Shown here: piece by piece, positions 3,377 through 27,816 of the stretch
Layout: each line of letters starts with the position of its first letter
Numbering within the stretch: the stretch's first letter is position 1
Translations under genes and position numbers: made by a program
Notes under the pieces: generated by a model
Seen by the model: only the letters and a program-made list of their open reading frames with translations
Told to the model about the DNA's origin: nothing
Databases searched by the model: none
Assembly: GCA_001782235.1 (NCBI GenBank)
Contig: MFOC01000003.1
Coordinates: 47,851 to 111,850, forward strand
DNA length: 64,000 nt
From: Candidatus Levybacteria bacterium RIFCSPHIGHO2_02_FULL_40_18
Lineage (GTDB): Bacteria > Patescibacteriota > Microgenomatia > Levybacterales > GWA1-39-11
Direction of reading: 5' to 3'

Positions 3377-3558
3377 AAGTTAGACTTAAGATATTAAGAT
3401 GTAAGATTTAAGATGTAAAACTCAATAGATTCGATAGAATAGAACTAAAAAACTGCGTTTCTTGGAATTGCTTCGGAGGAAAACCTTTTGAAGCAAGTGT
3501 ATTTAATCATGTTTTCAAATCGTTGTCAAGGGCTGGCTTCGCGGGCCCGCATACCCTC

Positions 3559-4837: not shown

Positions 4838-5356
4838 TCCGCCAGCCGGCGGACTGCAATTAAGGCAGGAGAAAGCAGTTTCAGACTATTAATTGGCACG
4901 CCCCCAAACAACCTCTAACCCCGTCGAAACAATCCTGAAACTACTCTCCCCGGTCTTAAACCCGCGAATCCCTGAGTTTTGCGAAAGGCAAGCGCGGGAC
5001 CTTTAAAATCGGCATTCTAATTTAAGCTAGCAATTAGAACATGGCTTTAAAAAGCTAAAAGCCAAACGCTGAGAGCTAAAAGCTAAATTAGTTGTTCTTT
5101 GACAAAAGGTATACAGAAGGATGCACCTGAAGATGAACCGAATGGTTCGTCTCAAATGGTGCGTCCCTAATAGGCAACTATCTATTCACGTAGCTAGCTT
5201 TTTAAATTATAGCGAAGATTAGATAGTCTATTTTTTAAAATTAAATCTCCTTACATTCTAGATGTCGGATTCAGCGTACCATGAGTTGAAACTGCGCATG
5301 GTGCGCGGTGTCCGGCATTTAGAGAAACAAAAAGAAAGAAGGAGAAAAGGAGACAA

Positions 5357-5548
5357 ATGAATAATCCCATGAAGGGTTTCCCAAACGAGCTTGAAAGGTT
5401 ATGGGCGAAAAAAGCAATTGAAATCCTGCGAACAGCCGCGCTGTACTTGGTTGTCGCATTGGTTGCAATTGTGATTTTCATCCCAACACTGCTCTATTCC
5501 ATAAAGGAGGTTCTCACCGACCGCAAAAAGCGTAAGAAACGCACCTAG
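5357..5548 (+). CDS. Small single-TM membrane protein with a basic C-terminus (hypothetical)
   Basis: Good RBS (aaggagaaaaggagacaa ATG). A central hydrophobic helix. It lies inside the high-GC island. Confidence 0.3.
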   Translation: MNNPMKGFPNELERLWAKKAIEILRTAALYLVVALVAIVIFIPTLLYSIKEVLTDRKKRKKRT

Positions 5549-6849: not shown

Positions 6850-7519
6850 GCACCGTAAGATAAACAAACCCTGCCGACATCATGAAACCGAGCGACGAAG
6901 ATTTTCTTTTGACTCTTCCACGAAGAGCAGTAAAGGAGGTACTAAAACTACTCAAAACGCGGCAAGAGCAACGGCGCCAACCTCATACGAACGGTAAGAC
7001 AGCGAAGGAGAAGGAATGGCCTAAAAGACACATTAGTTCCCGATAGCACTGGAAACCCCCGCCATGGAAAAAACCACGAAAACACTGTCTGAATGGTGGA
7101 TGGAAGCCGGTAGATACCGGAGGCTCTTCATCTTCAGGCAGAATATCCACTCCAATAAGCAAGAAGGAGGCAACGGTGCAAGGAAAAGGCCGAAACCACG
7201 GAAGAAGCAAGATCTCGATCAAAAGAGGTCTGGCTAAGACTCGCTACCCTCAGCGCTCTGGAAAACACCAAGCTGAGGCACGAGCCTTACGTGAAGGTCA
7301 CCCAAGCACCCCCTCGGGGAGGACGAATGGCAAAAAGACCGTTCAACGCAACGGGCGGCAAGCGCAAAGCCCGAAAGCCCCCGCCCCCGTGGCACCGTAA
7401 GTCCAAGAGACATCGGAAACGCCACGCGCGCGATCATGGGAACTTCGGGAACGTTCCGAGGAGAAGCCAGCTGTGATAACCATCGATACATAGTTTCATA
7501 GCGCACGGTAAGTGAATCC

Positions 7520-8590
7520 GTGGCAAAAAACGGCAAGTCAAAATCTTCAGAAAGGAAACGCAAAATGCCTGAAGAAACCGGAAATAGGAGTGGCACGCGA
7601 AGGCGAGCTGCTCGAACCACTCAGGCCCCGGCGCCGGCAGCGCCACCAGCCAACGGAGGGCAACCTCCAGCGGCACAGCCTCAAGAGGGAGGAAACATGC
7701 AACGCAGTCTGTTGTGGATACTTGTCATCCTCGCTGCAGTAGCGCTGGCGCTTGCTGCTTTCGCGGTAGGCCTGACCTTGGGTGACAAGGACGACTCGGA
7801 CGGCAGCTCGGCTACAGCCAGCAGTTCGTCAAGCTTAAGCTCCGCACCCGGCACCACCGGCGGCGGCGCCAGCAGCAACAACTCCGCTGACAACGGTCAG
7901 TCAGGCAAGAACGAATCGGAGTCCACGTCAACGGGAAGCTTTCCGACTCTCCCGAGCGATAAGTCCCACGGCGCGTGGAAGATCAAGACCGTAGCCGGCC
8001 TTGAAACATCCGGTGACCGTGTAGTCGCCGAATGGCTTGCGCGTCTGAAGGACCCGGCACCGAGGCTCTGGAAAACGTATCCCAACGTCCCCAACCCGGA
8101 TGTCGCGGACTTCAATGTAGCAGCAGGTGCCGAGTACGGTGTCGCCAACGTCCCGTTCTGTCAGCAGGACACGCGGTGCGACTTCGTGGTACCCGCATGG
8201 CACTACCGCCTGATTACCGCGGACTATGAGTTCCTCGGTCACAAGTGCGGAGGTAAGGGCAACGGATGCCTGCTCCTGCTCATCAACGTGATGGACAAGT
8301 CCTACACGTGGCGCAACCAGATCGCCGACAACGGCTTTTCGGTTCCGGGCAGGTACTGGGACGGTGACAAGCTCGAGTGGGCAGTTTGGGGCCTGGTCAG
8401 CCATGCGAGCGCTAACATGCTCAACTTGCCGACTACTGGCCTCGTGGGTCAGGTACTTAACGCTGGCACGCCCGGCAATGCAGGCGCTAACTGCGGCAAC
8501 GTCAACGGCTGCGGAAGCGTCGAGGTCATGGTCGTGGTGCACGCCGGCGATCGGATCCTGGCCACTGCCGAAACCACCGTTTCGCGGTAA
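7520..8590 (+). CDS. Membrane-anchored exported protein with a Ser-rich linker and a Cys-containing C-terminal domain (hypothetical). The true start may be the internal Met near 7697.
   Basis: Basic N-terminal tail, then TM LLWILVILAAVALALAAFAVGL, a Ser/Gly-rich low-complexity stretch, and a C-terminal globular region with several Cys. Confidence 0.35.
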   Translation: MAKNGKSKSSERKRKMPEETGNRSGTRRRAARTTQAPAPAAPPANGGQPPAAQPQEGGNMQRSLLWILVILAAVALALAAFAVGLTLGDKDDSDGSSATASSSSSLSSAPGTTGGGASSNNSADNGQSGKNESESTSTGSFPTLPSDKSHGAWKIKTVAGLETSGDRVVAEWLARLKDPAPRLWKTYPNVPNPDVADFNVAAGAEYGVANVPFCQQDTRCDFVVPAWHYRLITADYEFLGHKCGGKGNGCLLLLINVMDKSYTWRNQIADNGFSVPGRYWDGDKLEWAVWGLVSHASANMLNLPTTGLVGQVLNAGTPGNAGANCGNVNGCGSVEVMVVVHAGDRILATAETTVSR

Positions 8591-8956
8591 ACGTCGTGAA
8601 CCTCGCCAAGCTACTCTCGATCATTCGAGGAGACCTGATCGAGGAGTGGATCGAAAGGCAGCAGCAGAAACTTGCGGCTCGAGGTCTTGACTGGCTTCCG
8701 AAGGCTGCCTTGGTGATAGTCACCCTGGCAATACTCGTGGCCATAGTCGCCTACGGCGCAAGTCTGCGGCCTTAGGTCTCTCAAGCCTATTAGCCTGGGT
8801 CTGTCGTGATCGACGTCTAAAGCACGCATAATGCTTGTGTGAAATAAGATGATCGTAAACGATTAAGACTCGGAGGGAGTAAAGTTGCACGTGAATGTGA
8901 AAGTTCGTCATTCGACGATTCTGTTCGCTTCGCGCGAACAACTTTCACTCCACCTG

Positions 8957-9010
8957 TATACCTTTACTCTAAAGCTTATAAGGCAATTCCTTATCGGCTT
9001 TAGAGTAAAT
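8957..9010. terminator. Nested inverted repeats (tttactctaaagc ... gctttagagtaaa) at the right edge of the high-GC island. Probable terminator or structured element.
   Basis: A 13-bp perfect inverted repeat with a loop that is itself palindromic (cttataagg/ccttatcg). An upstream arm gtgaaagttcg...cgaacaactttcac lies at 8900-8950. Confidence 0.35.
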
Positions 9011-9084
9011 AGCTAAATAGCTGAACGGCTACATGGTTTTAAAAACTATGCAACCATTTTAACTATTCTAACCATTTAACTTTT

Positions 9085-10143
9085 ATGAGAACAATATCTT
9101 TCATTATTCCTTGCCATAACGAGGAAAAAAGACTAAATAAAACATTTGCCGCCCTACGCCTTGTTCAGGGCGAGCTTCCTCGTGGAATTCGACTTGCCGA
9201 AGTAATATTCGTAGATGACGGCTCAACCGACAAAACTTTTCCAAAGCTTTCAACTCTCGCACAAGAGAACTCTAGTCTTCCTGTATCTATAGTTTCTTAT
9301 AAAAAGAGGCTCGGAAAAGATAAGGCGGCAAGAGAAGGCATAAAGCATTCCGTTTCAAAGTTCAATCTGATTTTAAAACCCGATATGTCAAACCTCAAAA
9401 AAGAACTTGCTAAACTTTATCATAAACCCAAAAGGTTGAGAAGAAAACCCCCATTAGTTTCAGTCATTATGCCCGTCTATAACTCACAAGAGTATATTGA
9501 TAAGGCAGTTCAAAGTGTTTTAAGTCAAACATTTAAGGATTTTGAGCTTATCATTGTTGATGACCATTCAGCTGATAAAAGTTGGAATATAATCAAAAGG
9601 TATGCCCGAAAATCAAAGAAAATTAAATCTCTCAGAAATCGCAAAAAAATAGGGCTTCCAATTTCTGTCAAACGTGCACTTGAGAAAGCTAGGGGGGACT
9701 ATATCACAAAGATTGAAAGCGATGATCTTTGTTATAAAACGCGTTTTGAGAAACAGGTAAGATACCTTAATAAAAATAGACGGACAGTGGCGGTTGGAAC
9801 TCAATATTTATTTATCAATGAAAGAGGGAGAAAGGTTAATAAAAAGGTATCTCCACCTTTATTTGAGAGGATAAACCAATATATCTATCGTTTTCTACCG
9901 GTTCAACAACCTGCGCTCATGATAGCTAAAAAACGTTTGCCTCGCAATTTTGACTTTTACAATTATGACACGGATTCTTTGGAAGACACAGAGTTAGTTT
10001 ACAAACTTTCAAAATATGGAGAAGTTGAAAATCTACCATACACGCTTCTTAGATATAGACTAGATAACGATTATTCATTGCTTGAAACATTAAGAAAAAT
10101 TTACTTTTTGTTCTTCGTTTCACGCATAAAGGAGACCATATGA
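9085..10143 (+). CDS. Glycosyltransferase family 2 protein with two tandem GT-A N-terminal motifs
   Basis: ISFIIPCHNEEKRL...VIFVDDGSTDKT and VSVIMPVYNSQEYIDKAVQSVLSQTFKDFELIIVDDHSADKS. DxD-type (ESDD) motif. Confidence 0.75.
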   Translation: MRTISFIIPCHNEEKRLNKTFAALRLVQGELPRGIRLAEVIFVDDGSTDKTFPKLSTLAQENSSLPVSIVSYKKRLGKDKAAREGIKHSVSKFNLILKPDMSNLKKELAKLYHKPKRLRRKPPLVSVIMPVYNSQEYIDKAVQSVLSQTFKDFELIIVDDHSADKSWNIIKRYARKSKKIKSLRNRKKIGLPISVKRALEKARGDYITKIESDDLCYKTRFEKQVRYLNKNRRTVAVGTQYLFINERGRKVNKKVSPPLFERINQYIYRFLPVQQPALMIAKKRLPRNFDFYNYDTDSLEDTELVYKLSKYGEVENLPYTLLRYRLDNDYSLLETLRKIYFLFFVSRIKETI

Positions 10144-10370
10144 ATAAAGTTCTATTAAATTCACTGGGAGTTGCAGGATTAATAACCTTGTTAGTATTGG
10201 CCTATGTTGGTTTTGCCCTACTTAACCTTGAGAAAAAACGGGCTGAAAACGAAGCTAGATATCAATGCGCTGTTTCCTCAAAATATGAAATCCGCGACGG
10301 AGACGCAAATGTTTCTTTTCCTGTTAAAGAGGTTTATAAGGAATGTCTTCGCGAGAAAGAAATTGACTAA
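10140..10370 (+). CDS. Small single-TM protein (hypothetical)
   Basis: Start overlaps the stop of the GT2 gene (ATGA). N-terminal TM helix. Confidence 0.3.
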   Translation: MNKVLLNSLGVAGLITLLVLAYVGFALLNLEKKRAENEARYQCAVSSKYEIRDGDANVSFPVKEVYKECLREKEID

Positions 10371-10381
10371 TATTAACCCTT

Positions 10382-13300
10382 ATGGAATTTATCAAGCGTT
10401 TTATATTCCCGTTTCTTTTAGTTGTTTTAACAGTTTTTATATCTTTTCTAAACTATACTCCCGGAACCTTTCTTACAGGCTGGGATACTCTTCATCCTGA
10501 GTTTAATTTTGCGCAAAACTTCTCAAATATATTCTTCGGAGTTTTTAGAACCGATCAAGGTTTAGGGGCTGTTGCCGCGCATGCACATATGGCGGAACTT
10601 CCACGCCTAGTCTTATTATGGCTTTTTTCCTTCATCTTTCCTCTCTCATTCCTACGCTACTCTATTATATTTTTGTGTTTCATCCTAGGACCCTTGGGAG
10701 TCTACTTTTTCACGAAACGAGTCCTCAATCTCTACAACAATCTAACAATCGAACAATGGAGCAATTCAATTCCTGCTTTCCTTGCGTCCCTAATCTACAT
10801 CTTTAATCTTGGAACCGTCCAGCATTTTTATGTTCCTTTTGAGATGTTCACAATACAATATGCGGCTCTTCCTTGGCTCTTCTTAACAGCTTTAAGATTT
10901 ATAGAAAAGGGCACGAACTTGGCTCTTTTGTTATTTGCTATCGTAACACTTCTTGCTTCACCCATAGCCTATGCCTCGGTTCTATGGTACGCATACTTTG
11001 CATTTCTACTGTTGTTTCTTATCACATATTCAGTACTAAAACGGCAAAGAAAAGTTCTATTGCGAAGCCTATTCCTCGTCATAACTACCCTCGTCGTCAA
11101 TGCCTATTGGATTCTGCCAAATATGTATTTTTTGGCAAACGGTGCTAGTAATGTTTCCTTGGCCCAAACGAATAAAATTTTTTCAGATGAAGCTTTTCTA
11201 TACAACAAGGAGTATGGAAATATTTTGGATACGGCCATACTTCGAAACTTCTTATTTTCCTGGACGCAATCAAAAGACGTTCATACAACTGAAGACCTCC
11301 TTTCTGCCTGGAAAACGCATCTTAACAATCCTATTACTTTAACTATCGGGTACGCTGTTTTTGTCATAGTCTTGATAGGAATTTTAATCACCTTGATTAG
11401 GAAAAAGTCGATAGGAATAGCGTTTATCCCAGGCTTCCTGTTTTCCCTAATTATGGTTATGAACATGAACCCTCCTTTTGAAACTCTTTTTTCTTTTCTG
11501 CGAGAAACAAGCCCGATCTTTCGTGAAGCTTTAAGATTCCCATTTACGAAATTCTCAATCCTGCTTATGTTTTCTATGAGCTTCTTTTTTGCGGTTTGCT
11601 TGGCGCAAATCTTGAAAGCAGGGCAAAAGATAAAACCAGCCTATCTAAAAAGCGTCCTGCCTTTGGGAATTGCTTTAGTATTTTCAGCAAGTCTTGCATT
11701 TTATGGCGCGCCGATGTTCAAAGGCGAACTTATTAATCGCCAAATGAGAATTGCAATTCCACCTTACTACTTTGAATTATTTGACTATCTTTCCAAAAAA
11801 CCACAAGGTGCGCGCGTTGCCCCCCTACCGCTTCAATCCCTTTGGGGTTGGGAATACTATAACTGGCGCTATCAGGGAGCAGGTTTTATATGGTTTGGAA
11901 TTAAGCAGCCGGTTTTAGCCCGTGACTTTGACCGTTGGAACGCCCCCAACGAGCAGTATTTCCGCGAGATGTCTACTGCTGTCTATTCACGGGACGTAGG
12001 CCAGATTGAGGCCTTAGCTCGCAAATACAGAATTTCATATTTTCTTTTGGATGAAAGCGTTGTTTTTCCGGGCTACAAGCAAAATGCACTTTGGCATTAT
12101 GAGACGCACGATACTTTTAAAAAATCACGCCACATAAAACTTGAGAAACAGTTCGGATATCTTTATCTTTATAAAGTTGATGAATTTTTGACCGGCGAAG
12201 GCTACGTGCAACAACCGCAAAATATAATATCTGTGGCACCGCAAATTACAGGTGGATTTGTTGATCTTGCGACACAAAATCATGGCGATTACATTACTTT
12301 AGAAGAACCGGATTTCACTTATTTTTCGCGCTCTTTTGTTGATCGTTATGATCGAGTAGATCCTGCAAATATCAGTTTCTTAGGAGATAAACTCATCTTA
12401 AGACTTGGTAAGAATAAGGGATATAGCCTTACGGATTCATGGAAGTCTAATGATATTTTTCCCGAGTTTATGAGGAATTCTTATGATTTATCAATTGAAG
12501 AACAGGGCAATCCTTTCATAGTTGATGATGAACAATTCATTTTCTTTCCAGCAACATCAAGTCCTGTTAATGTCTCGGCTTCCCTTGAAGTGCCGGAGAA
12601 CTGTGGAGGAGCTTTACAAAGTTCAAAATCTCGCGTTATAAGACTTACTGACGCGGTTGCCTTCATAGCAAGGAATGGATCATCGTGTGGTTTTATTACA
12701 TTTTCAAGCGCAAAACAGGATTTTGGAAGTATCCTAATAATTGAAGCGAGAAATCTTAAGGGGTTGCCAACAAGACTTTGTATTAGCGAGAATATTACCG
12801 AGAGATGTGGAATTTACACTGCCCTTGACCCTGGAAATTCTTGGAAGAGATATGTTTTCATAATTCCACCCCTACCATCAGGGGGAAGTGGCTATGCAGT
12901 GCATTTCAATACGGTTGGAATCGGCAATGAGGAAAGCGAGAATGAGATCAGGTTCGCACAGCTTATCCAAATTCCTTATTATCGCATCGCAAATCTCTCT
13001 TTTGTTAAGAACGGGTACGTACTCAAAACAAATGGCGTTTCAATTATATCATCGCTTGAGATCAATCCTACTCTCTACACTACTCTTATCTCCGCTAAAA
13101 ATAATGAGGACGGTCTTATTGCCTTGTTCAAGGCCTTTGATCCGGGGTGGCAAGCTTATCAAGTCAATGTCAAATGTCAAATGTCAAATGTCAAATGTTC
13201 GCTTGCTATGGCTCTTCCCTTTTTATTCGGAAGCGAAATTGGCGAGCATGTTGAGGTGAATGGCTGGGCTAACGGCTGGCTCCTAAATTCGATCAATGAT

Positions 13301-13432
13301 CAAAGATCTAAGATCAAAGATCTAATTGTGATCGTCTATCTTCCCCAGTATCTTGAGTATGCTGGATTCGCTATTCTTATAATAACATTTTGTGTATTAT
13401 CGGGTAGAGTTCTTTTAAAGAGGAGTGAATAA
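10382..13432 (+). CDS. Large polytopic membrane protein (1016 aa) with a big extracytoplasmic C-terminal domain. Putative GT-C-type glycosyltransferase (AftD/DUF3367-like).
   Basis: More than 12 predicted TM helices in the first ~480 aa, followed by a ~500 aa soluble domain and a C-terminal TM. The family assignment is by architecture only. Confidence 0.5.
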   Translation: MEFIKRFIFPFLLVVLTVFISFLNYTPGTFLTGWDTLHPEFNFAQNFSNIFFGVFRTDQGLGAVAAHAHMAELPRLVLLWLFSFIFPLSFLRYSIIFLCFILGPLGVYFFTKRVLNLYNNLTIEQWSNSIPAFLASLIYIFNLGTVQHFYVPFEMFTIQYAALPWLFLTALRFIEKGTNLALLLFAIVTLLASPIAYASVLWYAYFAFLLLFLITYSVLKRQRKVLLRSLFLVITTLVVNAYWILPNMYFLANGASNVSLAQTNKIFSDEAFLYNKEYGNILDTAILRNFLFSWTQSKDVHTTEDLLSAWKTHLNNPITLTIGYAVFVIVLIGILITLIRKKSIGIAFIPGFLFSLIMVMNMNPPFETLFSFLRETSPIFREALRFPFTKFSILLMFSMSFFFAVCLAQILKAGQKIKPAYLKSVLPLGIALVFSASLAFYGAPMFKGELINRQMRIAIPPYYFELFDYLSKKPQGARVAPLPLQSLWGWEYYNWRYQGAGFIWFGIKQPVLARDFDRWNAPNEQYFREMSTAVYSRDVGQIEALARKYRISYFLLDESVVFPGYKQNALWHYETHDTFKKSRHIKLEKQFGYLYLYKVDEFLTGEGYVQQPQNIISVAPQITGGFVDLATQNHGDYITLEEPDFTYFSRSFVDRYDRVDPANISFLGDKLILRLGKNKGYSLTDSWKSNDIFPEFMRNSYDLSIEEQGNPFIVDDEQFIFFPATSSPVNVSASLEVPENCGGALQSSKSRVIRLTDAVAFIARNGSSCGFITFSSAKQDFGSILIIEARNLKGLPTRLCISENITERCGIYTALDPGNSWKRYVFIIPPLPSGGSGYAVHFNTVGIGNEESENEIRFAQLIQIPYYRIANLSFVKNGYVLKTNGVSIISSLEINPTLYTTLISAKNNEDGLIALFKAFDPGWQAYQVNVKCQMSNVKCSLAMALPFLFGSEIGEHVEVNGWANGWLLNSINDQRSKIKDLIVIVYLPQYLEYAGFAILIITFCVLSGRVLLKRSE
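13163..13198 (+). repeat. Heptanucleotide tandem repeat (tcaaatg x4 plus a partial copy) inside the 1016-aa membrane protein CDS
   Basis: gtcaatgtcaaatgtcaaatgtcaaatgtcaaatgttc encodes VNVKCQMSNVKCS. The unit length of 7 is not a multiple of 3. Confidence 0.8.
13291..13333 (+). repeat. In-frame palindromic mini-element (aagatctaagatcaaagatctaat) inside the 1016-aa CDS. It is homologous to the insert in pth.
   Basis: gatcaatgatcaaagatctaagatcaaagatctaattgtgatc encodes INDQRSKIKDLIVI. Compare 21459-21495 in pth, which encodes DPRSKIQDLI. Confidence 0.6.
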
Positions 13433-13670
13433 GTAACGAATAGAAGATCACACAAAATATTGTTTGTCAAGAGGGTAATTTAATCTCCCCAAGTTTTCCA
13501 CATTTTCTCTAAGTAATTTAAAACAGTTTGATAATTCAGTCTAAATTGATTATAAAATTACTCTGGGTCTATCATTTTTGGAGCGGAAAAAAGCTATAGG
13601 TTGCATTATTTCGAGATTTTATGCTATACTTTATTCAGTGTCTAAGATTTAAGATTTAAGATTTAAGAAA

Positions 13671-13877
13671 TTGCTTACATCTTACAACTTAAAACTTACA
13701 AACTTGACTATGAAACTTTTAAAGCTCCTCAGGACACAAAAAAAGGCAGGTAACTTAAATATTGCTCGCGCTGGAAAAGTGATTGACTTTTATCAAGATT
13801 CAATTGAAAAAATAGGTAGGGATCAGATTAAAAAGCTGGTCGAAAAGGGTTTGAGCATCCCAGTGTTTACTCTCTGA
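13671..13877 (+). CDS. Small hypothetical protein (68 aa) in a long intergenic region
   Basis: ORF preceded by a TATACT-like box (13626-13631) and a taagatt x3 repeat. No recognisable domain. Confidence 0.25.
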   Translation: MLTSYNLKLTNLTMKLLKLLRTQKKAGNLNIARAGKVIDFYQDSIEKIGRDQIKKLVEKGLSIPVFTL

Positions 13878-14195
13878 CTTGCATCGGGCAGTATAACGCT
13901 GGGATACAAGTGATATCCTTGAGTGCGCGGGGATACAAAAAAGAGCATCGCTTTCGCTACTGTGAAAATAAATCCTTGAGTACGAAAAGCAATGCTCTTT
14001 TAAAAATTAGCTATTAGTCTTTAGGCAGGAAAAGACTAGGCTATGGGGATAAAGCTAGCAAAAGAAAAATCTTTTGTCAAGAAAATCTGACGAAGCAAAA
14101 ATCAGCGATTTAGGCTGTCCATAAAAGATTTTTCATGTCCCAAAAAACATAGCTAAATCCCGATTTGATCGGGATAAATTTGTCTTTTCTAAAAA

Positions 14196-14238
14196 AGGGG
14201 GTAGGAGTGTTGGGCAGGCATTCTTACCCCCTTTTTGT
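14196..14238. terminator. Bidirectional intrinsic terminator, likely terminating the PIN-TRAM gene on the minus strand
   Basis: GC-rich stem gggggtagg...cttaccccc (14196-14231) with T-runs on both sides (aaaaaa upstream, tttttgt downstream). Confidence 0.45.
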
Positions 14239-14308
14239 ATGGAAACCCCTTTTTGTATTAAACTGTGAAAATTAAGCCATTGCCGGCCCAAATTTTCACG
14301 AATTTTTA

Positions 14309-15106
14309 TTAGTTGCCTGCCGTTTTTATTTTGGAGAAGAGGATTTTGCCGGCGTCTGTTTGAATAATTCGCGAGACTTCTACCTGAACGGTTTTGCCAA
14401 CTGAACTCTTCCCTTGTTCCACGACCAACATGGTGCCGTCGGGTAAATACCCTACCCCCTGATTTAGGCCTTTCCCCTCCTGAACTATTTTTACAAAAAA
14501 CTCCTCACCCGGTAATGCTGTGGTTTTAAGAATGTTGGTCATCTCATAAAGATCAATGGCGCGAACATTTGAGATTTTTGCCTTTTTTGCCAAATTATAA
14601 TCGCACGTAACAATTCTGCCTTTAAATTTTTTGGCATGGTCAATAATTGATTCATCTACCGGCTTTATGAGCTCATCGGGTATTATCTTTACCCTTATCC
14701 CTCGGGTCTTTTTGAACTTTTCAAGCGCATCCATTGCGCGCCGGCCTCGCTCCTTTTTGATAGCGTCTTTTGAATCCGATATATTTTTAAGCTCGGTCAG
14801 CACACTCTCTAAAACTATGAAGTTGCCGTAAAGCGCTCCAATTCTTGCCAAATCAAAAGTCCTCATGTCAATAATTGCCGAAGTATCAAGAAAAACCGCA
14901 TTGTCAATTTTTTTATCTTTTCTAACTTTTTTTGTTCGACGGTGCGGGATTGTGCTAACCACAACCTTCCCCACCTCTTCTGCAATTTGACGAATCACGC
15001 GGGGCGGTAACATTAGATTCTCAAGAACCTCTGATCCAACCGCTCTCGCCATCTCCACCCCGCCGGTTTTACGTTTTAAGTTTTTAGTTTTAAGTTTATC
15101 GCTCAT
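14309..15106 (-). CDS. PIN-domain plus TRAM-domain protein (YacL-like)
   Basis: PIN core (AVFLDTSAIIDMR...IVLESVLTELKNI). C-terminal TRAM-like beta segment (EEFFVKIVQEGKG...GKTVQVEVSRIIQTDAGKILFSK). Confidence 0.65.
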   Translation of the reverse strand: MSDKLKTKNLKRKTGGVEMARAVGSEVLENLMLPPRVIRQIAEEVGKVVVSTIPHRRTKKVRKDKKIDNAVFLDTSAIIDMRTFDLARIGALYGNFIVLESVLTELKNISDSKDAIKKERGRRAMDALEKFKKTRGIRVKIIPDELIKPVDESIIDHAKKFKGRIVTCDYNLAKKAKISNVRAIDLYEMTNILKTTALPGEEFFVKIVQEGKGLNQGVGYLPDGTMLVVEQGKSSVGKTVQVEVSRIIQTDAGKILFSKIKTAGN

Positions 15107-15127
15107 AGACTTTTTATTATATCACCT

Positions 15128-16618
15128 TCAACTAGAGGCTGATCCGTCTTTGGCGGAAATAATTACATCCTGTAGAAACTTAAATTTCTCACTTGTTATT
15201 ATATTTTTAAATCCAAATTTTTTGGCTTCTTTCATCCGCTGTTTTATGTTACTCACTTCTTTTAGTTCTCCAAGGAGTCCTATCTCTGCTATGGCAACTG
15301 CGTTGATGGGCTTGTTTTTAAATGATGAAACTAGGGCGAGACAAGCAGCCAAATCTCCCGCAGTCTCGGTGATTCTAAGACCTGAGACAACATTCACATA
15401 AACATCAAAACGATCAAGGGGTATTTTTGCATGTTTTTGCATAACGGCAAGAAGAAGTTCGATTCTTGTTGATGCTATTCCGTTTGACACGCGTCGAGGG
15501 TACGAGAGATTTGATGGAACAACTAATGCTTGGATTTCGCAAAGCAATGGCCGCGTGCCCTCCATAACAACCGTAAGGCAAGATCCGGGCACGCGCTTTT
15601 TATTCTTATCCATGAAAAATCCCGAATCACGAACCTCTACAATTCCCCGCTCTTCCATTGCGAAGATCCCGACCTCCGATGAGTCTCCGAATCTGTTTTT
15701 AAATGCGCGCAAAATCCTTGTCGAGCTGTCGGTTTGCCCCGATTTGATCGGGGTTGATGCGCAAGACTCAAGATATAAAACACAATCAACCATGTGGGAG
15801 AGCGACATGGGGCCTGCAACCTCTCCCTCTTTTGTCACGTGTCCGATGATAAAAACAGGGACTCCATTCTTCTTGGCAAAAGAAACAATCCTTGAGGTCG
15901 CGTGTCTAATCTGAGGAAGGGATCCGGCAAAACCCGGCACATTATCGCTTGCCATTGCTTGAATGGAATCAATAATTAATAGATCTGGATTAATTTTTTG
16001 CGCTGCCACAATTACGCTTTCTAGGTTCCCGTTTGAAAAAATAAAGAGATTGTCGCTCTCCTTGACTCCAATTCTTTCTGCGCGAATCTTAATCTGACCC
16101 TCAGATTCCTCCCCGCTCACATACAACACTCTGTTCTCGGTTTTCGGTTTTCGGTTTTCCGTTCCCTGTTTACCTGTTTTCAGTTTGTCTGTTTTTAAAA
16201 CTGAACGACCGACAACTGACTGACTGGAGTCTGACAACTGAGAACTGAGAACCGATAACTGGGAAGCGCCATGAGTGATGTTTTTTGCAAGTTCAAGAAG
16301 AAGTGTGGATTTTCCAACGCCGGGATCTCCGGACAAAAGGACCGCAGAACCGGCCACAATTCCTCCTCCCAAAACCCTATTGAACTCGGAAAATCCAGTT
16401 GAAATTCGAGAAGCGGCTTCACTTTTTACCTTACCAATTTGTATAGGAACGCTTGATGCAAAATCAAGGCTTGTAGATGTTTTTGAAGGAGCTTCAACTT
16501 TAAACTCGGAAAACGTATTCCATGCCTGACACGAGGGACACCTACCGTACCACTTACTCGATTCATAACCACACGCCGAACAAATAAACGCCGTTCTTTT
16601 CATAAATTCAAAAATCAA
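15128..16618 (-). CDS. radA: DNA repair protein RadA/Sms (Zn finger, RecA-like ATPase and Lon-like domains) carrying an in-frame ~45 aa low-complexity insertion
   Basis: N-terminal CxxC...CxxC. Walker A GDPGVGKSTLLLEL, then ...VLYVSGEES. KNGVPVFIIGHVTKEG. A C-terminal Lon-like region. The segment between Walker A and VLYVSGEE is expanded (ITHGASQLSVLSSQLSDSSQSVVGRSVLKTDKLKTGKQGTENRKPKTENR). Confidence 0.85.
   Translation of the reverse strand: MIFEFMKRTAFICSACGYESSKWYGRCPSCQAWNTFSEFKVEAPSKTSTSLDFASSVPIQIGKVKSEAASRISTGFSEFNRVLGGGIVAGSAVLLSGDPGVGKSTLLLELAKNITHGASQLSVLSSQLSDSSQSVVGRSVLKTDKLKTGKQGTENRKPKTENRVLYVSGEESEGQIKIRAERIGVKESDNLFIFSNGNLESVIVAAQKINPDLLIIDSIQAMASDNVPGFAGSLPQIRHATSRIVSFAKKNGVPVFIIGHVTKEGEVAGPMSLSHMVDCVLYLESCASTPIKSGQTDSSTRILRAFKNRFGDSSEVGIFAMEERGIVEVRDSGFFMDKNKKRVPGSCLTVVMEGTRPLLCEIQALVVPSNLSYPRRVSNGIASTRIELLLAVMQKHAKIPLDRFDVYVNVVSGLRITETAGDLAACLALVSSFKNKPINAVAIAEIGLLGELKEVSNIKQRMKEAKKFGFKNIITSEKFKFLQDVIISAKDGSASS
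16125..16265. repeat. MITE-like imperfect inverted-repeat element inserted in frame within radA
   Basis: The arms ctcggttttcggttttcgg...ctgttttcagtttgtctgttttt | aaaactgaacgaccgacaactgactg...gagaaccgataactgg are inverted copies of each other. A related copy is intergenic at 25945-26090. Confidence 0.5.
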
Positions 16619-16706
16619 AAGTCAAAGGTCAAAAGTTAAAGTAAAAAGTGTTAAAAACTTTTAAATTTTGAATTGCAATTTTGAATTTTGCATTTTGACT
16701 TTTGAC
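16619..16706. promoter_or_regulatory. Palindromic AT-rich spacer between the S1-protein gene and radA. Likely terminator and promoter region.
   Basis: aaaatcaaaagtcaaaggtcaaaagt ... acttttgacttttgac form an inverted repeat around a central aaatttt core. Confidence 0.3.
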
Positions 16707-17975
16707 TTATCTGTAGCCGATAGGTATTGCTTTCAGGATTGGCGAGAGGATAATTACGCGGCGCCTACCATCAAAGTCAACAACAACGGCTTCAACGTCC
16801 TGCCCCACATCATATGTTGTGCCGGAAGGAATTTTGTCCGAGGGAATAAATCCATTGACGCCCCCTCCGGGCCGGAGGCCCTCAGGGCCGGAGGCATCTT
16901 CAATTGCAAGGGTTATTCCGCGGGTTTTAACCTCAGTCACCGTTCCGCGAACCTTCTCTTCGACTTTGTATTTGTTTCGAACGTTTGCAAATACATCTTC
17001 TAGTGTCTTTTTAATTGAAAGATTTACTCTTCTATTCGCTGTGTCAATCTCAAGAACTTCTGCCTTTATTTTACCTCCGACTTTATATGATGCCCCTAAG
17101 TTCTCCACGCGCGCATAGGAAATCTCAGATATGTGAACAAATCCTTCGACAACAGCTTCCCCTTTCCCTCCTGGGCCGGAGGCCTGCTCTCTGAGTCCCG
17201 AGGCTCTCCGAGTCGGGGACCGGGCCGGAGGCTCAATTTTTACGAAAAGTCCGTAAGGTGCAACCTCTGTGATCTCAGCTTCTATAATTTCGCCGGGCTT
17301 AAGAAGCGCTTTTATAGAATCGATATTTGTGAGAAAAAAGGTTGCTTTCTCTGAAAAAACGGCTCGTTTTTTAGAACGATCATATTCAAGTATTTTAACT
17401 TTTATTTTTGCGCCCGGACCAATAGATTCTTGGGAAAGTATCTGTGAGGCCGGCAAAAATCCGCGAACTCCTTCTCCTGTCAATGTAAAATATCCGCCAC
17501 GGGTAGGCTCCGCAACTTCAACCTCAAAAGCTTCATCGCGGCGAGCCAAATCTTCAAACTTATTAAAGATAATATCGTCAAGCATTCGACGCAGGGAAAC
17601 AACCGGAAAACCTTCTTCTGATTCTGGCGAAATAACAGTTGCCGTAACGCGGTCCCCAACCTTAAGATTTGCTAATAGATTCTCCAAGTTTTGCTTATCA
17701 AATTCAATTACTAAAGCGTCTCCCTTAGCCCCGATGTCCATTAAAATCTCTTGTGGGGTGAGTTTTTTGATAATACCTGAAACAGCCTGCCCTTTCTGAA
17801 GAACCTGGAAAAACGAGCCTTGTTTGGCCATTAACTCGCCCATCGAGGAAGCTGGCTTCCGAGACCCTGAGCTTGTCGAACGGGTTAACTCAGCCATCGA
17901 GCCCGCAGGCTTGCCCTGAGCTTGTCGAACGGGTTTAGAAGAGTTTTTTGTTTTCGGTTTTAAGTTGTCTACCAC
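16707..17975 (-). CDS. S1 RNA-binding domain protein (ribosomal protein S1-like, about four S1 repeats). It carries two in-frame GC-rich inserts and an N-terminal tandem duplication.
   Basis: Repeated S1 motifs (GDRVTATVISPE..., GAKIKVKILEYD..., GEIIEAEITEVAPYGLFVKI, GGKIKAEVLEIDTANRRVNLSIK, VRGTVTEVKTRGITLAIED). The N-terminus has a 45-bp tandem duplication (KPVRQAQGKPAGSMAEL / RKPASSMGEL). Confidence 0.6.
   Translation of the reverse strand: MVDNLKPKTKNSSKPVRQAQGKPAGSMAELTRSTSSGSRKPASSMGELMAKQGSFFQVLQKGQAVSGIIKKLTPQEILMDIGAKGDALVIEFDKQNLENLLANLKVGDRVTATVISPESEEGFPVVSLRRMLDDIIFNKFEDLARRDEAFEVEVAEPTRGGYFTLTGEGVRGFLPASQILSQESIGPGAKIKVKILEYDRSKKRAVFSEKATFFLTNIDSIKALLKPGEIIEAEITEVAPYGLFVKIEPPARSPTRRASGLREQASGPGGKGEAVVEGFVHISEISYARVENLGASYKVGGKIKAEVLEIDTANRRVNLSIKKTLEDVFANVRNKYKVEEKVRGTVTEVKTRGITLAIEDASGPEGLRPGGGVNGFIPSDKIPSGTTYDVGQDVEAVVVDFDGRRRVIILSPILKAIPIGYR
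16867..16895. repeat. GC-rich direct-repeat mini-element (gggccggaggc cctca gggccggaggc) inserted in frame in the S1-protein gene. It encodes ASGPEGLRPGG.
   Basis: The 11-mer gggccggaggc occurs twice, separated by cctca. Copies lie at 17171-17233 and 61217-61252. Confidence 0.65.
17171..17233. repeat. Second, expanded copy of the gggccggaggc element in the S1-protein gene. The two 11-mers are separated by 39 bp.
   Basis: ctgggccggaggcctgctctctgagtcccgaggctctccgagtcggggaccgggccggaggctc encodes EPPARSPTRRASGLREQASGPGG. Confidence 0.6.
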
Positions 17976-21089: not shown

Positions 21090-21285
21090 TCTATATAAAA
21101 AATAAAATATAAAATAGTAAATATACATATTAAATATGAAAAATGAGAAGAATCGAGAATTTAAGAATAGATTATATGCGTTAATTTTAAGAACAATAAG
21201 ACTTGTAGAAAGCGGGGGTAAAAGAAAAAATATTTGATTTTTACTATGTATTTTTTATCTTTTATATTTAATATTTAATATTTAT

Positions 21286-21903
21286 ATGAAGTTAATAGTC
21301 GGTCTGGGAAATCCCGGAGAAAAATACCAAAATACCCGCCACAATATTGGTTTTATGGCGCTGGATTCTCTTTTGGAAAAATTCGAGCCGGTCGAAAAAA
21401 CATTTTGGGAAGAAAAAAAGAATCTTAAGTCCAATATTAAACACATTAAGTTTAGTATCCAGGATCCAAGATCTAAGATCCAAGATCTAATCCTTGCCAA
21501 ACCCACTACTTTTATGAATGCCTCGGGATTTGCGGTTTCAAAGGTTTTAAATTATTACAAAATCGAACCGGTCGAGATGATAGTCATTCATGATGATTCG
21601 GATCTGCTTTTAGGGAAAATTCGAGTGCGATTTGGGGGCGGCTCTGGCGGCCACAAGGGTGTCGCTTCAATTATCGAAACTATTCAAACAGACCAATTTT
21701 TGCGCGTAAGGCTTGGGATCGGCCGGTCGGAGGATGAGAAACTTGGTAAAAAAAGACACAAGAAGCTTGACAGATATGTCCTTGGCTCTTTCTCACCGGC
21801 TGAACGCGGGCACGTTAAAACTATGATTCGCGAAGCGACACGTGCAGTCGAGTTAATCCTTGAGCACGGCCTCGAAGTATACATGAGCAAATACAACAAG
21901 TAG
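21286..21903 (+). CDS. pth: Peptidyl-tRNA hydrolase with a short in-frame repeat-element insertion
   Basis: MKLIVGLGNPGEKYQNTRHNIGFMALD is a canonical Pth N-terminus. The insert KFSIQDPRSKIQDLILAKP is encoded by a palindromic repeat. Confidence 0.9.
   Translation: MKLIVGLGNPGEKYQNTRHNIGFMALDSLLEKFEPVEKTFWEEKKNLKSNIKHIKFSIQDPRSKIQDLILAKPTTFMNASGFAVSKVLNYYKIEPVEMIVIHDDSDLLLGKIRVRFGGGSGGHKGVASIIETIQTDQFLRVRLGIGRSEDEKLGKKRHKKLDRYVLGSFSPAERGHVKTMIREATRAVELILEHGLEVYMSKYNK
21459..21495. repeat. In-frame palindromic mini-element (ccaggatccaagatctaagatccaagatctaatcc) inside pth
   Basis: It contains two BglII-type agatct palindromes. A homologous element lies at 13291-13333. Confidence 0.6.
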
Positions 21904-21939
21904 TAACTAACAAATTAACGAAAACAACAAAGTAACAAA

Positions 21940-22302
21940 TTAACGGGACGAGCGAAGTTTTTTCGAAAGTCCACCTAACTGTTTTGTAATACTTTCCGCT
22001 AATTTAATTACTTCATTAAAAGAAGTTTTTTCTATTAAAGCATTGTCAAGCGCAATATCTAGACAAGCTACGGATTCATTTATTGAACCTAATGCATTTT
22101 CTATGTATCGTTTGAAATCCTTATCAGAGTACTTAGCCGAACCTTCTGCGATATTAAGACAAGCTGATAGTATAGCTCTTCTTAGTTGATCTCCAAGCTC
22201 CTAATGTTCTCGAGGAAATAACTTAGTTATCGCTACTATTCTTTTATAAAGCAATTTGCTGTCTTTGTATACCTGAAAATCTAGAAATCTGAAAGTTTTC
22301 AT
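21940..22302 (-). pseudogene. Four-helix-bundle protein (TIGR02436, 23S rRNA IVS-type) with an in-frame TAG at codon 35. The gene is flanked by inverted repeats.
   Basis: Translation reads MKTFRFLDFQVYKDSKLLYKRIVAITKLFPREH*ELGDQLRRAILSACLNIAEGSAKYSDKDFKRYIENALGSINE.... The TAG is at plus-strand 22201-22203, where family members have Tyr/Phe. Flanks: aacaaattaacg (21910-21947) and ggttaatttgttaac (22350-22365). Confidence 0.55.
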
Positions 22303-22379
22303 CTCGTCTTAGCTTAATTCGAACAATATCAAATTGTCAATTTGTCAATTGGTTAATTTGTTAACTGTTGAGCGGAGCT

Positions 22380-25944: not shown

Positions 25945-26090
25945 AGGTCAGTTGTCAATTGTCAGTTCTCGGTTGTCGGTTGTCAGATAGCTGTTTATCT
26001 GTTCTCTGTTTGTCAGTTTTTAAACAGACTGACTGAAGACCGACAGACTATAATCCGAAAACAGAAAACGGAGAACCGATAACGGTATCG
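25945..26090. repeat. Intergenic copy of the MITE-like inverted-repeat element also found inside radA
   Basis: cagttctcggttgtcggttgtcag...ctgtttgtcagtttttaaacagactgactgaagaccgacag...gagaaccgataacgg shares its blocks with 16125-16265. Confidence 0.45.
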
Positions 26091-26136
26091 CCCGTGATAC
26101 TTGTGATACTTCTGATACTCGTGGTACCCTTGGATT

Positions 26137-27333
26137 ATGACGATTATTATTTTCTCAGCTCTCCTCTCCCTTGCCGTATTTCTTGAGGGTATCGGAATCC
26201 CATACGATAGAAAAATCCCCCTCTACCTATTGCTCTCCCTGCCCTATGTTTTATTTATTTTAAACAGGAAATGGAAAATCGAACTCCCCCGAACTTTAAA
26301 AATTTTATTTGGTGGTTTTTTGTTTTTTTCTCTTGTTTCGACGCTTCTCTCTCCCAATGTTCGAACTTCAATTGAATACTTGTTTCTTTATACATCCGCG
26401 TTTTTATTTTTCGTTTATATCATAAATAATAAAGAACAGATTGAACGATTTATGCTTCCGTTAATCTTTGCTTTTTCCGCACTTTTTGTAATTTACTCGC
26501 TTGCCTTACCCGCGCTTATCCGCACTTTTCCCTTCCTCGAACCACAATTCGGCTACCAAGTGGTCTTTTCAAAATTCTTCTCTCACAATCACCTCGGCGA
26601 CTTCCTTCTTCTACCATTGGTAATGCTTTTCTATTATTTGCTTTCAAATCGAAACTCAACTAATAATCGATCTATTATCTATTATCTATTATCTATTATC
26701 TTATTCCTTCCCTACTTTCTCTTCTCTTTCTCCCGAAGTGCTTATCTTGCGCTGTTTCTGACACTTGTTCTTATGGTTGCGGGGCTCGTTCGAACAAAAA
26801 TGTTTAAATTCAGCCTGCCTGCCGTGATTCTTTTAGTTTTCTCCCTTCTCCTGCCGCTTTTGTTTATCTTCTCGGTCGTACAAAGATATGATTACAGCCT
26901 GTCCAGCAGGATAAGTTATCTTCTAACAAACCGATATGGTCTTGAGTATAAAGAAGAAAGTGGAAACAGGCTTGAATATTTAAGTCAAAGTTTTCTTTCA
27001 ATTCGCAAGAACCCTCTTTTTGGAACGGGGCCTGGGAATTTTATCGAGGCCTCGAATAAATTTAAGGGGAATTATTCGACTCCCACAGAAACTGCCCACA
27101 ATGTCTTTCTTGAGATGCTTGTTGAGAACGGGGTTTTGGCCGGGATTGTGTTCGTTTTTTTGATTTTCGAACTTCTTCGCCGCTCCCAAAGAAACGTATA
27201 TTTCTACATGGCACTTGGGCTCCTTATCAATTTCCAGACCGACTACACATACAGAATCTACTTCCTTTTTGTACTGTTTTTCATACTGTTAGGACTAGCC
27301 TACAAAGAAGGTTCAATTGATGATAGACTGTAG
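26137..27333 (+). CDS. O-antigen ligase/polymerase (Wzy_C) family membrane protein
   Basis: At least 10 TM helices. The conserved loop NKFKGNYSTPTETAHNVFLEMLVENGVLAGIVFVFL is typical of O-antigen ligase domains. Confidence 0.55.
   Translation: MTIIIFSALLSLAVFLEGIGIPYDRKIPLYLLLSLPYVLFILNRKWKIELPRTLKILFGGFLFFSLVSTLLSPNVRTSIEYLFLYTSAFLFFVYIINNKEQIERFMLPLIFAFSALFVIYSLALPALIRTFPFLEPQFGYQVVFSKFFSHNHLGDFLLLPLVMLFYYLLSNRNSTNNRSIIYYLLSIILFLPYFLFSFSRSAYLALFLTLVLMVAGLVRTKMFKFSLPAVILLVFSLLLPLLFIFSVVQRYDYSLSSRISYLLTNRYGLEYKEESGNRLEYLSQSFLSIRKNPLFGTGPGNFIEASNKFKGNYSTPTETAHNVFLEMLVENGVLAGIVFVFLIFELLRRSQRNVYFYMALGLLINFQTDYTYRIYFLFVLFFILLGLAYKEGSIDDRL
26671..26705 (+). repeat. Heptanucleotide tandem repeat (tctatta x4) inside the O-antigen-ligase-like CDS
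   Basis: tctattatctattatctattatctattatcttatt encodes SIIYYLLSIIL. Confidence 0.8.
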
Positions 27334-27370
27334 AAGCTAGAATGTAGAATTTGAAGTTAGAAAGTAGATA

Positions 27371-27733
27371 TTAGAAAGTTTTCCAGTTGTTTCGTAAATT
27401 ATTGAGTTTACCGCCTAGGTAAGAGTAGCGCTTAAGTAAATCTTCGCATAAATTCTTGTTCCAATAGTTTAAATCTCGCGCGGTCTCGATATGCACCTCC
27501 ATTTCGTTTGCTGAACCAATCGCTGCATCAAGGTGTCTTTTAAATTCCTTTTCAAATCTCCTTTTGGCCCAACCCTCAGCTATGTTTGATGGACAAGACT
27601 TTGATGCTCTTCTCATTTGAGAAGCAAGGTCGTTTCTCTCATATACCGGAAGCTTTTTAACTTCTTTATGAACTATTATCATTAGCTCGTAGCTTTCTTT
27701 ATAAACCTCGAGGTCTCTGAATGTCTTTATCAC
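27371..27733 (-). CDS. Four-helix-bundle protein (TIGR02436, 23S rRNA intervening-sequence protein family). Intact copy flanked by inverted word repeats.
   Basis: EVYKESYELMIIVHKEVKKLPVYERNDLASQMRRASKSCPSNIAEGWAKR. Flanks: gaatttgaagttagaaag (27334-27370) and its inverted counterpart cttcaaattccagcttctaat (27760-27800). Confidence 0.65.
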   Translation of the reverse strand: MIKTFRDLEVYKESYELMIIVHKEVKKLPVYERNDLASQMRRASKSCPSNIAEGWAKRRFEKEFKRHLDAAIGSANEMEVHIETARDLNYWNKNLCEDLLKRYSYLGGKLNNLRNNWKTF

Positions 27734-27816
27734 CCACTTATACTAACAATTCTTACTTCTACTAATCAAGCTTCAAATTCCAGCTTCTAATTTCCAGTTT
27801 CTAACATCAAATGAAG

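Follow-up and report, generated by a model that had tools for sequence, protein, structure and literature searches.

A dispersed heptamer-built element as the probable source of an extra loop in Levybacteria RadA

We have investigated the origin of an extra segment in the RadA protein encoded by Candidatus Levybacteria bacterium RIFCSPHIGHO2_02_FULL_40_18, using a 64,000-nucleotide stretch of its genome (contig MFOC01000003.1, positions 47,851 to 111,850 of the forward strand), referred to here as the window. The question raised by this locus is whether the segment is an inserted element that is read through or a product of the radA gene itself. The original prediction, made from the letters of the sequence, was of a 140-bp element resembling a MITE (miniature inverted-repeat transposable element), inserted in frame, with a second, intergenic copy. 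The analysis described here indicates that the segment is very likely one copy of a dispersed element built of heptamers, read through as a tolerated loop at a permissive position in RadA which has been hit repeatedly. The copy would be translated as a disordered loop of ∼44 residues, rich in S, Q, V and L and then in K, T, E, N and R, which RadA would tolerate; the loop, because it is permissive, may have been hit repeatedly and independently in different Levybacteria lineages, and the 127-bp form of the element may derive from a cassette carrying a gene for a four-helix-bundle protein.

The extra RadA segment and the element that encodes it

The radA product scores 471 bits against TIGR00416, for which the cut-off is 403, and its zinc ribbon, Walker A, KNRFG motif and Lon-like domain are each intact. 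Alignment with S. pneumoniae RadA (5lkm; E 2.8e-106) is broken into two blocks, residue 109 of the query corresponding to chain residue 112 and residue 158 to chain residue 117, such that 48 query residues (110-157) stand opposite four in 5lkm, a net gain of ∼44 aa located between the Walker-A helix and the VLYVSGEES strand. The spacing from GKST to Y(V/I)SGEE is consequently 60 aa, compared with the usual 16-17 in the 120 closest database relatives, all of which are Levybacteria or unnamed Patescibacteria, and likewise across 240 Levybacteria orthologues, in agreement with the extra segment originally proposed for this position. The DNA of the insert measures 133 bp, or 131 bp between the boundaries of the family profile described below (16131-16261), and not 140 bp as predicted. 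It keeps the frame and has no stop codon. In an AlphaFold2 model built with 58 orthologues the RadA core is confident, whereas the predicted local distance difference test (pLDDT) score falls to 40-56 over the insert and exceeds 90 in the flanking helix (residues 98-110) and strand (residues 159-163). The insert is thus a loop modelled as disordered, and with its open frame and the intact RadA motifs the proposal of a tolerated, low-complexity loop is supported.

An assembly or chimera artefact created by repeats has practically no probability as a source of the insert. A metagenome contig from a separate assembly record in ENA (L001) is 99.917% identical to window positions 6901-16557 (9.7 kb), without gaps, and carries an identical insert, so the insert is not an assembly artefact; in addition the reading frame is preserved and RadA genes in other samples carry the same kind of insert. 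Repeats of this type do nevertheless break assemblies. The match of L001 to the window ends 65 nt before the end of L001 itself (L001 1-65 against window 16557-16620), beside the heptamer palindrome at 16604-16705, and is an example of heptamer repeats interrupting short-read assembly. RadA also contains a second, smaller extra segment of ∼9 residues (SCASTPIKSGQ, residues ∼281-291, window 15720-15770) compared with S. pneumoniae RadA and with the consensus of the orthologues; it too is modelled with low confidence, and it is not built of heptamers.

The element consists of two opposed arrays of degenerate TAACTGA-type heptamers, a construction which had escaped the original prediction. On the plus strand the radA copy is composed of ∼9 TCNGTTN heptads (TCTGTTC, TCGGTTT, TCGGTTT and so on), the centre GTTTTTAAAAC and ∼9 NAACNGA heptads (ending in CTGAGAA, CTGAGAA, CCGATAA, CTG). 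As radA is on the minus strand, the T-rich arm forms the A-rich 3' half of the insert on the sense strand, encoding KTDKLKTGKQGTENRKPKTENR, and the A-rich arm forms its T-rich 5' half, encoding QLSVLSSQLSDSSQSVVGRSV. The intergenic copy, also correctly anticipated, is placed between two divergently oriented genes, which start at 25922 (minus) and 26137 (plus), and has no open reading frame (ORF) on either strand. The two copies align in register and without gaps in both orientations, the C, G, TT and T of each heptad being invariant. A three-heptad pattern matches the window 20 times where 0.38 matches would be expected, which exceeds chance; nearly all of these matches are within the two copies, and the family profile (nhmmer) detects exactly two full copies in the window. 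The partial array at the 5' end of the PIN/TRAM-like gene directly downstream of radA is a weak relative of an element arm. The heptad register is interrupted by a characteristic irregularity, in which four regular heptads are followed by TCRGA and four or five odd bases before the register returns. This irregularity is common to the arms of the radA copy, the intergenic copy and an insert in another RadA, 66% identical to that of the window (P0015, locus L002). Coordinates are collected in Table 1.

Table 1. Coordinates and supporting evidence for the radA copy, related features and period-7 tracts of the window
Feature	Position	Strand	Details and evidence
radA	15128..16603	minus	491 aa from ATG at 16603; TIGR00416 471 bits; 5lkm E 2.8e-106; AlphaFold2 mean pLDDT 81.6
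In-frame heptamer pseudo-palindromic copy	16130..16262	.	Encodes ∼RadA residues 114-157 (QLSVLSSQLSDSSQSVVGRSVLKTDKLKTGKQGTENRKPKTENR); family-profile nhmmer E 2.5e-32
T-rich arm, 'alpha' type (GTT-T-TC), ∼9 TCNGTTN heptads	16130..16196	+	Tandem Repeats Finder (TRF) period 7, 9.1 copies; repeat family D1; arm polarity
A-rich arm, 'beta' type, NAACNGA heptads	16200..16262	+	TRF period 7, 5 copies at 16231-16265; inverted repeats I1-I4
Intergenic copy	25948..26086	.	nhmmer profile 25958-26084, E 7.6e-32; alignment with radA copy
Partial A-rich heptamer array (TAAAACN on minus strand)	15064..15102	+	2-mismatch pattern match; TRF period 7; nhmmer E 3.7, not significant
Related cassette, TIGR02436/PF05635 gene 27371-27733 (full length)	27324..27810	minus	TIGR02436 E 2.8e-27
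Period-7 tract	1988-2013
Period-7 tract	3387-3418
Period-7 tract	5050-5087
Period-7 tract	13166-13198
Period-7 tract	13291-13325
Period-7 tract	13643-13701
Period-7 tract	16604-16705
Period-7 tract	21093-21287
Period-7 tract	21457-21490
Period-7 tract	26670-26701
Period-7 tract	27324-27377

A scan of public metagenome contigs with a 19-base pattern built on the TCRGA irregularity returned at least 119 loci, nearly all of which hold the same two-armed element. At least 65 distinct copies could be extracted in full, ranging in length from 119 to 146 bp with modal lengths of 123 and 129 bp, and a profile built from the 62 orientable copies detects at least 85 full and at least 48 partial places in the metagenome loci. 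Among the 120 loci listed from GTDB species genomes there is one strong profile match, in a Candidatus Levybacteria metagenome-assembled genome (MAG) from Rifle, and Candidatus Levybacteria are the only named sources of the family among the matches listed. Several source contigs are 430-720 kb in length, the size of a Candidate Phyla Radiation (CPR) genome, and each contains several copies. The family is thus abundant in public metagenomes, apparently mostly from groundwater. Searches of the open literature, which excludes subscription journals, yielded no description of this heptamer element family, and Rfam gives no family match within the window.

The architecture of the family is constant. 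From a terminus T/CNGTTATC it proceeds through four TCNGTTN heptads, the TCRGA unit and two or three more units to a short AT-rich centre, and the mirror NAACNGA arm terminates in GATAACNG/A; GATAACTGA is the usual terminal unit, and the repeats are degenerate rather than exact. In 62 of 65 copies the arms are asymmetric, one reading …GTT-T-TC.GTT-T-TC.GA and the other …GTT-G-TC.GTT-G/A-TC.GA, and this consistent difference gives the element a polarity. The architecture also bears on an alternative origin, in which replication slippage enlarged a heptamer microsatellite within radA to produce a lineage-specific, low-complexity loop and no element moved. Period 7 is indeed the dominant short-period repeat of the window, with 13 tracts compared with 0-1 for periods 5, 6 and 8-11, and the length of the RadA loop varies extremely among Levybacteria; heptamers are also the commonest long simple repeats in bacteria, with polymerase slippage as the proposed cause, as Mrazek 2007 is reported in PMC4679880. 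However, slippage would not recreate the unit number, the TCRGA unit, the termini and the arm polarity at more than 60 unrelated loci, and the radA insert itself matches the family profile. Slippage is largely refuted already by the family architecture, which leaves it highly improbable and favours a dispersed element as the source of the radA segment.

Several sequence features adjoin or interrupt individual copies. A promoter-like site on the minus strand at 25929-25958 matches at 11 of 12 positions, its -35 TTGACA lying within the terminal heptads of the intergenic copy and its -10 CATAAT in the flank, 8 nt before the GTG start at 25922; it could represent an outward promoter with a nearly leaderless transcript. 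Promoter scanning gave no -35/-10 match in radA, the strong match being confined to the intergenic copy, which is not enough to claim a promoter role for the element. Directly after the intergenic copy, window 26094-26127 contains 3.8 copies of a 9-nt repeat, GTGATACTT, and similar GTGGTACTN repeats follow element copies in metagenome loci L227 and L197, which would mean that the loci are orthologous or that the repeat is a recurring neighbour. The element copies at L199, L241, L229 and L165 contain GC-rich hairpin sequences nested within them, which suggests a second small element inserting into the first.

Copies within genes, RNA folding and the RadA loop

Context was classified for 55 copies, among the matches listed, which lie sufficiently far from contig ends. 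Of these, 17 are in frame inside genes and 38 are intergenic. The 17 internal copies have at least 50 open codons on each side; the intergenic copies comprise 22 located within 80 nt upstream of one long ORF, five between divergent starts, including the intergenic copy of the window, and 11 in other intergenic positions. In all, 27 copies are thus no more than 80 nt ahead of a start codon, and the distance from element terminus to start codon clusters at 3-9 nt (13 of 32 distances). The hosts of internal copies are conserved proteins in which Pfam domains surround the insert or are recognised on either side of it, and they include a P-type ATPase, RecJ, Rho, ComEC, an ATP-grasp enzyme, an O-antigen ligase, PMT-type and GT1 glycosyltransferases, phosphoribosyl pyrophosphate (PRPP) synthetase, two RluA-type pseudouridine synthases, ribosomal protein L1 and a second RadA (L224). 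The peptides are alike, reading (L)SV(L/F)S.QLSD.GQSV.GQSV… followed by …TDK.KTGK..(S/T)ENRK.KTDNR.

All 17 internal copies are open in the frame of the host, whereas 21 of the 38 intergenic copies have none of six frames open. The sense strand also folds less well than the antisense strand in 16 of the 17 internal copies, with means of -36.4 and -48.4 kcal/mol, respectively (Wilcoxon p = 2e-4), as would be explained if CTGA and TAAC units, which generate TGA and TAA, were purged from the A-rich arm of the sense strand. The closed frames of intergenic copies and the weakened sense-strand fold suggest that in-ORF copies are read through and not removed.

Hairpin potential was evaluated at the level of both arms and folded RNA. 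The two arms are 73-78% complementary, the value in register being 74%, hardly above the 5/7 positions fixed by the heptad motif, and in 38 of the 62 oriented copies the longest stretch of perfect in-register complementarity measures 6 bp. At the variable positions, the arms of one element match at 0.27 compared with 0.38 ± 0.012 between elements, a value as low being obtained in 0 of 5000 permutations; this deficit is in part an artefact of orientation, the recognition of which led to that of arm polarity, and it remains after the copies are oriented. When folded with exact boundaries, element RNA gives z ∼-6 against dinucleotide shuffles at ∼-44 kcal/mol, compared with -105 kcal/mol for an exact palindrome of the same arm, while an earlier fold which included flanking sequence gave weak z values of -0.5 to -2.0. 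The palindrome is therefore imperfect, its complementarity being held well short of complete, and as an inverted repeat the element is poor. A stable hairpin as the selected feature is not established, and this candidate was set aside as arms within an element match less than arms between elements.

These data also address whether the radA copy could act in the manner of a 23S-type intervening sequence, with the arms pairing in the transcript, RNase III cutting and the insert never appearing in protein, radA being split or silenced as a result. The better-than-shuffled fold is in line with this scheme, and family members exist which carry a gene for a PF05635 intervening-sequence protein between the arms or, without cargo, lie within an insertion of 446 nt which interrupts the helix-89 region of a gene for 23S rRNA (L179). 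Excision, however, needs no open frame, yet every internal copy is open and most intergenic copies are closed in six frames; the sense-strand fold is weakened specifically in the copies which would have to be excised; and an arm run of 6 bp makes a poor double-stranded RNA. To our knowledge, no means exists in bacteria by which a cut mRNA is rejoined. Excision of in-ORF copies is thus unlikely, even though RNase III does cut the stem-loops that make up classical intervening sequences (PMC4990558), and an intervening sequence is a very improbable explanation for the radA segment compared with a copy that is read through.

The distribution of the loop among RadA orthologues indicates how often this position has been altered. 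In a tree of the RadA core, the expanded loop is scattered over more than 12 lineages whose sisters have the short form, and in a second Levybacteria clade approximately half of 120 RadA orthologues possess an expanded loop of very varied sequence. P0015, which is 66% identical to the window RadA, contains a similar insert with similar peptides (…SQSVV…KTGK…ENRK…), whereas closer relatives of the window RadA have no insert. Comparison of the radA junction with an empty-site orthologue (P0002) places the window element directly against the VLY codons; the P0015 copy is one codon from VLY in the same element frame, while the copy in the L224 RadA is six codons away in a different element frame. 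Other RadA loops hold different repeats, with A-rich sequence preceding T-rich (P0166) or with units 8-9 nt long (P0034, P0003). The empty sites in closer relatives, the offset and different frame in L224 and the unrelated inserts in the same loop make repeated insertion into a permissive loop the better reading. The possibility, raised in the original prediction, that orthologues share the segment is therefore borne out for P0015 and not for the closer relatives or L224. Orthology of the window and P0015 inserts was also sought in the variable positions, which proved uninformative as the radA copies are no closer to each other than to in-ORF copies in PRPP synthetase or RecJ.

The similarity between RadA peptides from two lineages which are 66% identical could alternatively reflect co-option, in which an insert derived from the element has acquired a function in RadA as a charged, disordered loop, for example in partner or DNA contacts, and is now maintained through selection acting on the protein. 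Copies within the ORFs of many proteins do converge on one peptide type. The occurrence of that type in a dozen unrelated proteins, however, points to constraint by the DNA motif and avoidance of stop codons and not to a RadA-specific function. In addition, closer relatives manage without the insert and the loop is modelled as disordered. Co-option is consequently improbable, and a tolerated loop encoded by a dispersed element remains the preferred reading.

A number of observations weigh against this reading. Translation of the radA insert is inferred and not observed, and RNA structure may have a role, given the hairpin potential (z ∼-6). The window and P0015 inserts share a reading frame and have junctions one codon apart, and they could represent one old insertion rather than two. 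The scan pattern was derived from the window's own copies, the counts and proportions given here describe an arbitrary sample, and most of the metagenome contigs have no taxonomic label. Mobility is deduced from distribution only: a direct-repeat test with k = 2-9 on 61 copies detected no target-site duplication, the observed values equalling those for shuffled partners, no transposase was seen in the fetched loci, the sole loci examined, and no polymorphic filled and empty site was seen within one population.

PF05635 cassettes and rRNA insertions

The association of the element with a gene, also absent from the original prediction, suggests a possible source of the 127-bp form. In the fetched loci the only gene found between the element arms encodes a four-helix-bundle protein of the PF05635/TIGR02436 family, as in locus L152, and the 127-bp form is for this reason most simply a gene-less derivative of such a cassette. 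An iterated profile detects at least 25 PF05635-like genes in the at least 119 metagenome loci, 11-12 of which are bracketed by the heptamer element. A further 17 PF05635-like genes (16 in fetched loci and one in the window), some from non-CPR phyla, are not bracketed by the selected family; 14 of these are flanked by inverted repeats which score above the 95th percentile of 744 control ORFs, and most of these repeats, judged by eye, are heptamer arrays, each gene having its own heptamer. The window gene at 27371-27733 is flanked by inverted TAGAANN/NNTTCTA arrays with an inverted-repeat score of 19, compared with a control 95th percentile of 10.5; this cassette corresponds to the type of element seen in radA, but with a gene on board. 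A second TIGR02436/PF05635 gene in the window, at 21943-22200 on the minus strand, is truncated and is bracketed (21908-22361) by inverted arrays of 8-nt units, TAACAAAT/TCAATTTG. A proposed tie between PF05635 genes and TCNGTTN arrays outside the CPR was rejected, as the five genes found were not adjacent to matched arrays.

Copies of the element are also present within rRNA genes. In L179 (102-570) the 446-nt insertion which holds the cargo-less copy is at model positions ∼2497-2504 of the 23S rRNA gene. The copy in a 23S rRNA insertion of L151 is likewise cargo-less, and L151 holds two group I introns. L142 and L160 carry a PF05635 gene with the same sequence flanking the element; the L160 cassette is inside a match to large-subunit (LSU) rRNA, and L142 gave no rRNA match. 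Classical rRNA intervening sequences consist of S23p genes between inverted repeats, and the idea that these sequences can move, their ORF supplying a mobility component, was put forward long ago (PMC4990558).

Combined, these results raise the tentative and, in our estimation, rather unlikely possibility that there is an unrecognised kind of mobile cassette of which the 127-bp element is the form lacking a gene; the protein of this cassette would recognise the short-period arrays flanking its own gene and promote their copying to new sites without a classical transposase. The strong inverted repeats around 14 of 17 PF05635-like genes, mostly of the gene's own heptamer and in part from outside the CPR, support this proposal. 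If it is true, the intervening sequences of 23S rRNA, the TAACTGA-type arrays upstream of genes and the in-frame inserts would be one system.

Relation to known repeats and other repeats of the window

The Levybacteria element most closely recalls the Rickettsia palindromic elements (RPEs), which are reportedly dispersed palindromic repeats of 100-150 bp, many of them in frame in conserved genes and read through, with the peptide in a surface loop and no transposase of their own. The element described here is similarly dispersed and dyad-symmetric, is found in frame within conserved genes, is inserted in a loop in RadA and has no transposase of its own. It differs in its host, which is a free-living or epibiotic member of the CPR and not Rickettsia, in arms which are degenerate heptamer arrays rather than a unique palindrome, in also favouring sites immediately upstream of start codons, and in the existence of a gene-carrying form. 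The distinction from RPE-1 to RPE-8 is based on this host and heptamer build. The element thus behaves like a Rickettsia palindromic element, as an analogue and not a member, and the analogy drawn originally is upheld by the many copies of fixed architecture, about a third of the classifiable ones being in frame inside conserved proteins.

The comparison with MITEs is apt only in a loose sense. Small size, many copies, terminal inverted heptads (CNGTTATC…GATAACNG) and the lack of an open frame in most intergenic copies agree with it, and some bacterial MITEs are in frame or supply outward promoters. Against it, the element has no target-site duplication, no transposase-bearing parent insertion sequence was seen in the fetched loci, and the inverted repeats span the whole length and are imperfect. 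Repetitive extragenic palindromes and bacterial interspersed mosaic elements (REP/BIME) are GC-rich palindromes of 20-40 nt with a conserved tetranucleotide and an associated gene for a REP-associated tyrosine transposase (RAYT); the Levybacteria element is, in contrast, ∼127 bp, AT-rich and built of heptamers, and no RAYT-like gene was seen beside its copies in the fetched loci. The short tandemly repeated repetitive (STRR) heptamers of cyanobacteria are said to be heptanucleotide tandem arrays, some with a CAGT core, dispersed in intergenic regions. They are simple arrays with no defined two-armed element, and they have not been described as inserting in frame into conserved genes.

With respect to repeat unit, the closest relatives are direct repeats of the heptamer TAACTGA described from Beggiatoaceae, Cyanobacteria and Bacteroidetes (MacGregor 2015, PMC4679880). 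These are simple tandem arrays of 2-43 units, with one inverted case in a Maribeggiatoa genome; 'forward' arrays end a few bases before start codons, occasional arrays are inside ORFs, and mobility and a repeat-binding protein have been raised as ideas (MacGregor 2015, PMC4679880). NAACNGA is a degenerate form of TAACTGA, the reverse complement of which is TCAGTTA, and the 3-9 nt spacing between element termini and start codons is a further likeness. The Levybacteria unit is, however, not a variable simple array but a two-armed element of fixed length, with polarity and an irregular unit; its host is a CPR bacterium and approximately a third of its classified copies are in frame in genes. A general four-heptad pattern, scanned across species genomes, showed heptamer arrays in many phyla among the matches listed. 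A reverse-complement array is downstream in 31 of 111 cases and precedes the array in two, and an ORF starts within 60 nt of 48 of 101 forward arrays compared with 19 of 101 controls.

The intervening sequences of 23S rRNA (PMC4990558) resemble the cargo form, in which a PF05635 gene is bracketed by inverted repeats, and the cargo-less copies in 23S insertions. The radA copy, in contrast, is in a protein gene with no ORF between its arms, which are heptamer arrays with regular mismatches rather than a near-perfect 28-bp stem.

In-frame palindromic repeats in essential proteins are known mainly from Rickettsia, and the Levybacteria would provide a second, apparently independent system, in the CPR. 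It is suited to study of the spread of such repeats and their effects on proteins, being abundant, with a fixed and searchable architecture, filled and empty sites among related genomes and a candidate gene-carrying parent. It links TAACTGA-type arrays before genes, an intervening-sequence protein family of unknown function and many insertions in CPR genes and rRNA. Such inserts also inflate and distort alignments of CPR proteins and break assemblies.

The period-7 tandem repeats of the window, which have many unit sequences, fill its first 28 kb, and the sister genome has 11 period-7 tracts in 21 kb. Those at 13166, 13291 and 26670 are inside long ORFs. Several tracts make up inverted pairs. 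One such pair, (AAAGTCA)n/(TTTTGAN)n, separates radA from the gene for an S1-domain protein, and another, (TAAGATT)n/(CTTACAA)n, forms the tract at 13643-13701. A tRNA search of the window found none.

The S1-domain gene, on the minus strand, contains short GC-rich palindromic inserts with GCCTCCGGCCC at 16862-16897 and 17165-17235; the motif occurs seven times in the window compared with 0.43 expected, also being present at 61221-61247, in the ORF at 60465-61793. In the S1-domain protein these inserts are in frame, adding 11 and 13 residues (ASGPEGLRPGG; …SPTRRASGLREQASGPGG…) that the orthologue of the sister genome (L003) lacks, and they may represent a second in-frame class of element. The region 17831-17975, which holds a tandem duplication of 49 nt and a run of A-rich heptamers, precedes the probable true start of this gene (M45, by comparison with L003), and the 44-residue 'N-terminal extension' of the ORF is probably an untranslated leader.

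Heptamer arrays of other types occur elsewhere. In L003, tracts at 5053-5093 and 5333-5381 (TGGCTNG…, GTTCGTC…) are inside the gene for peptidyl-tRNA hydrolase, indicating that the TCNGTTN family is not alone in placing heptamer inserts in frame within housekeeping genes. In a betaproteobacterial MAG (L022, ∼3700-3870), inverted (TCTGTNT)n and (ANACAGA)n arrays flank a putative tRNA gene, as judged by eye, suggesting that two-armed heptamer arrays also bracket RNA genes outside the CPR.

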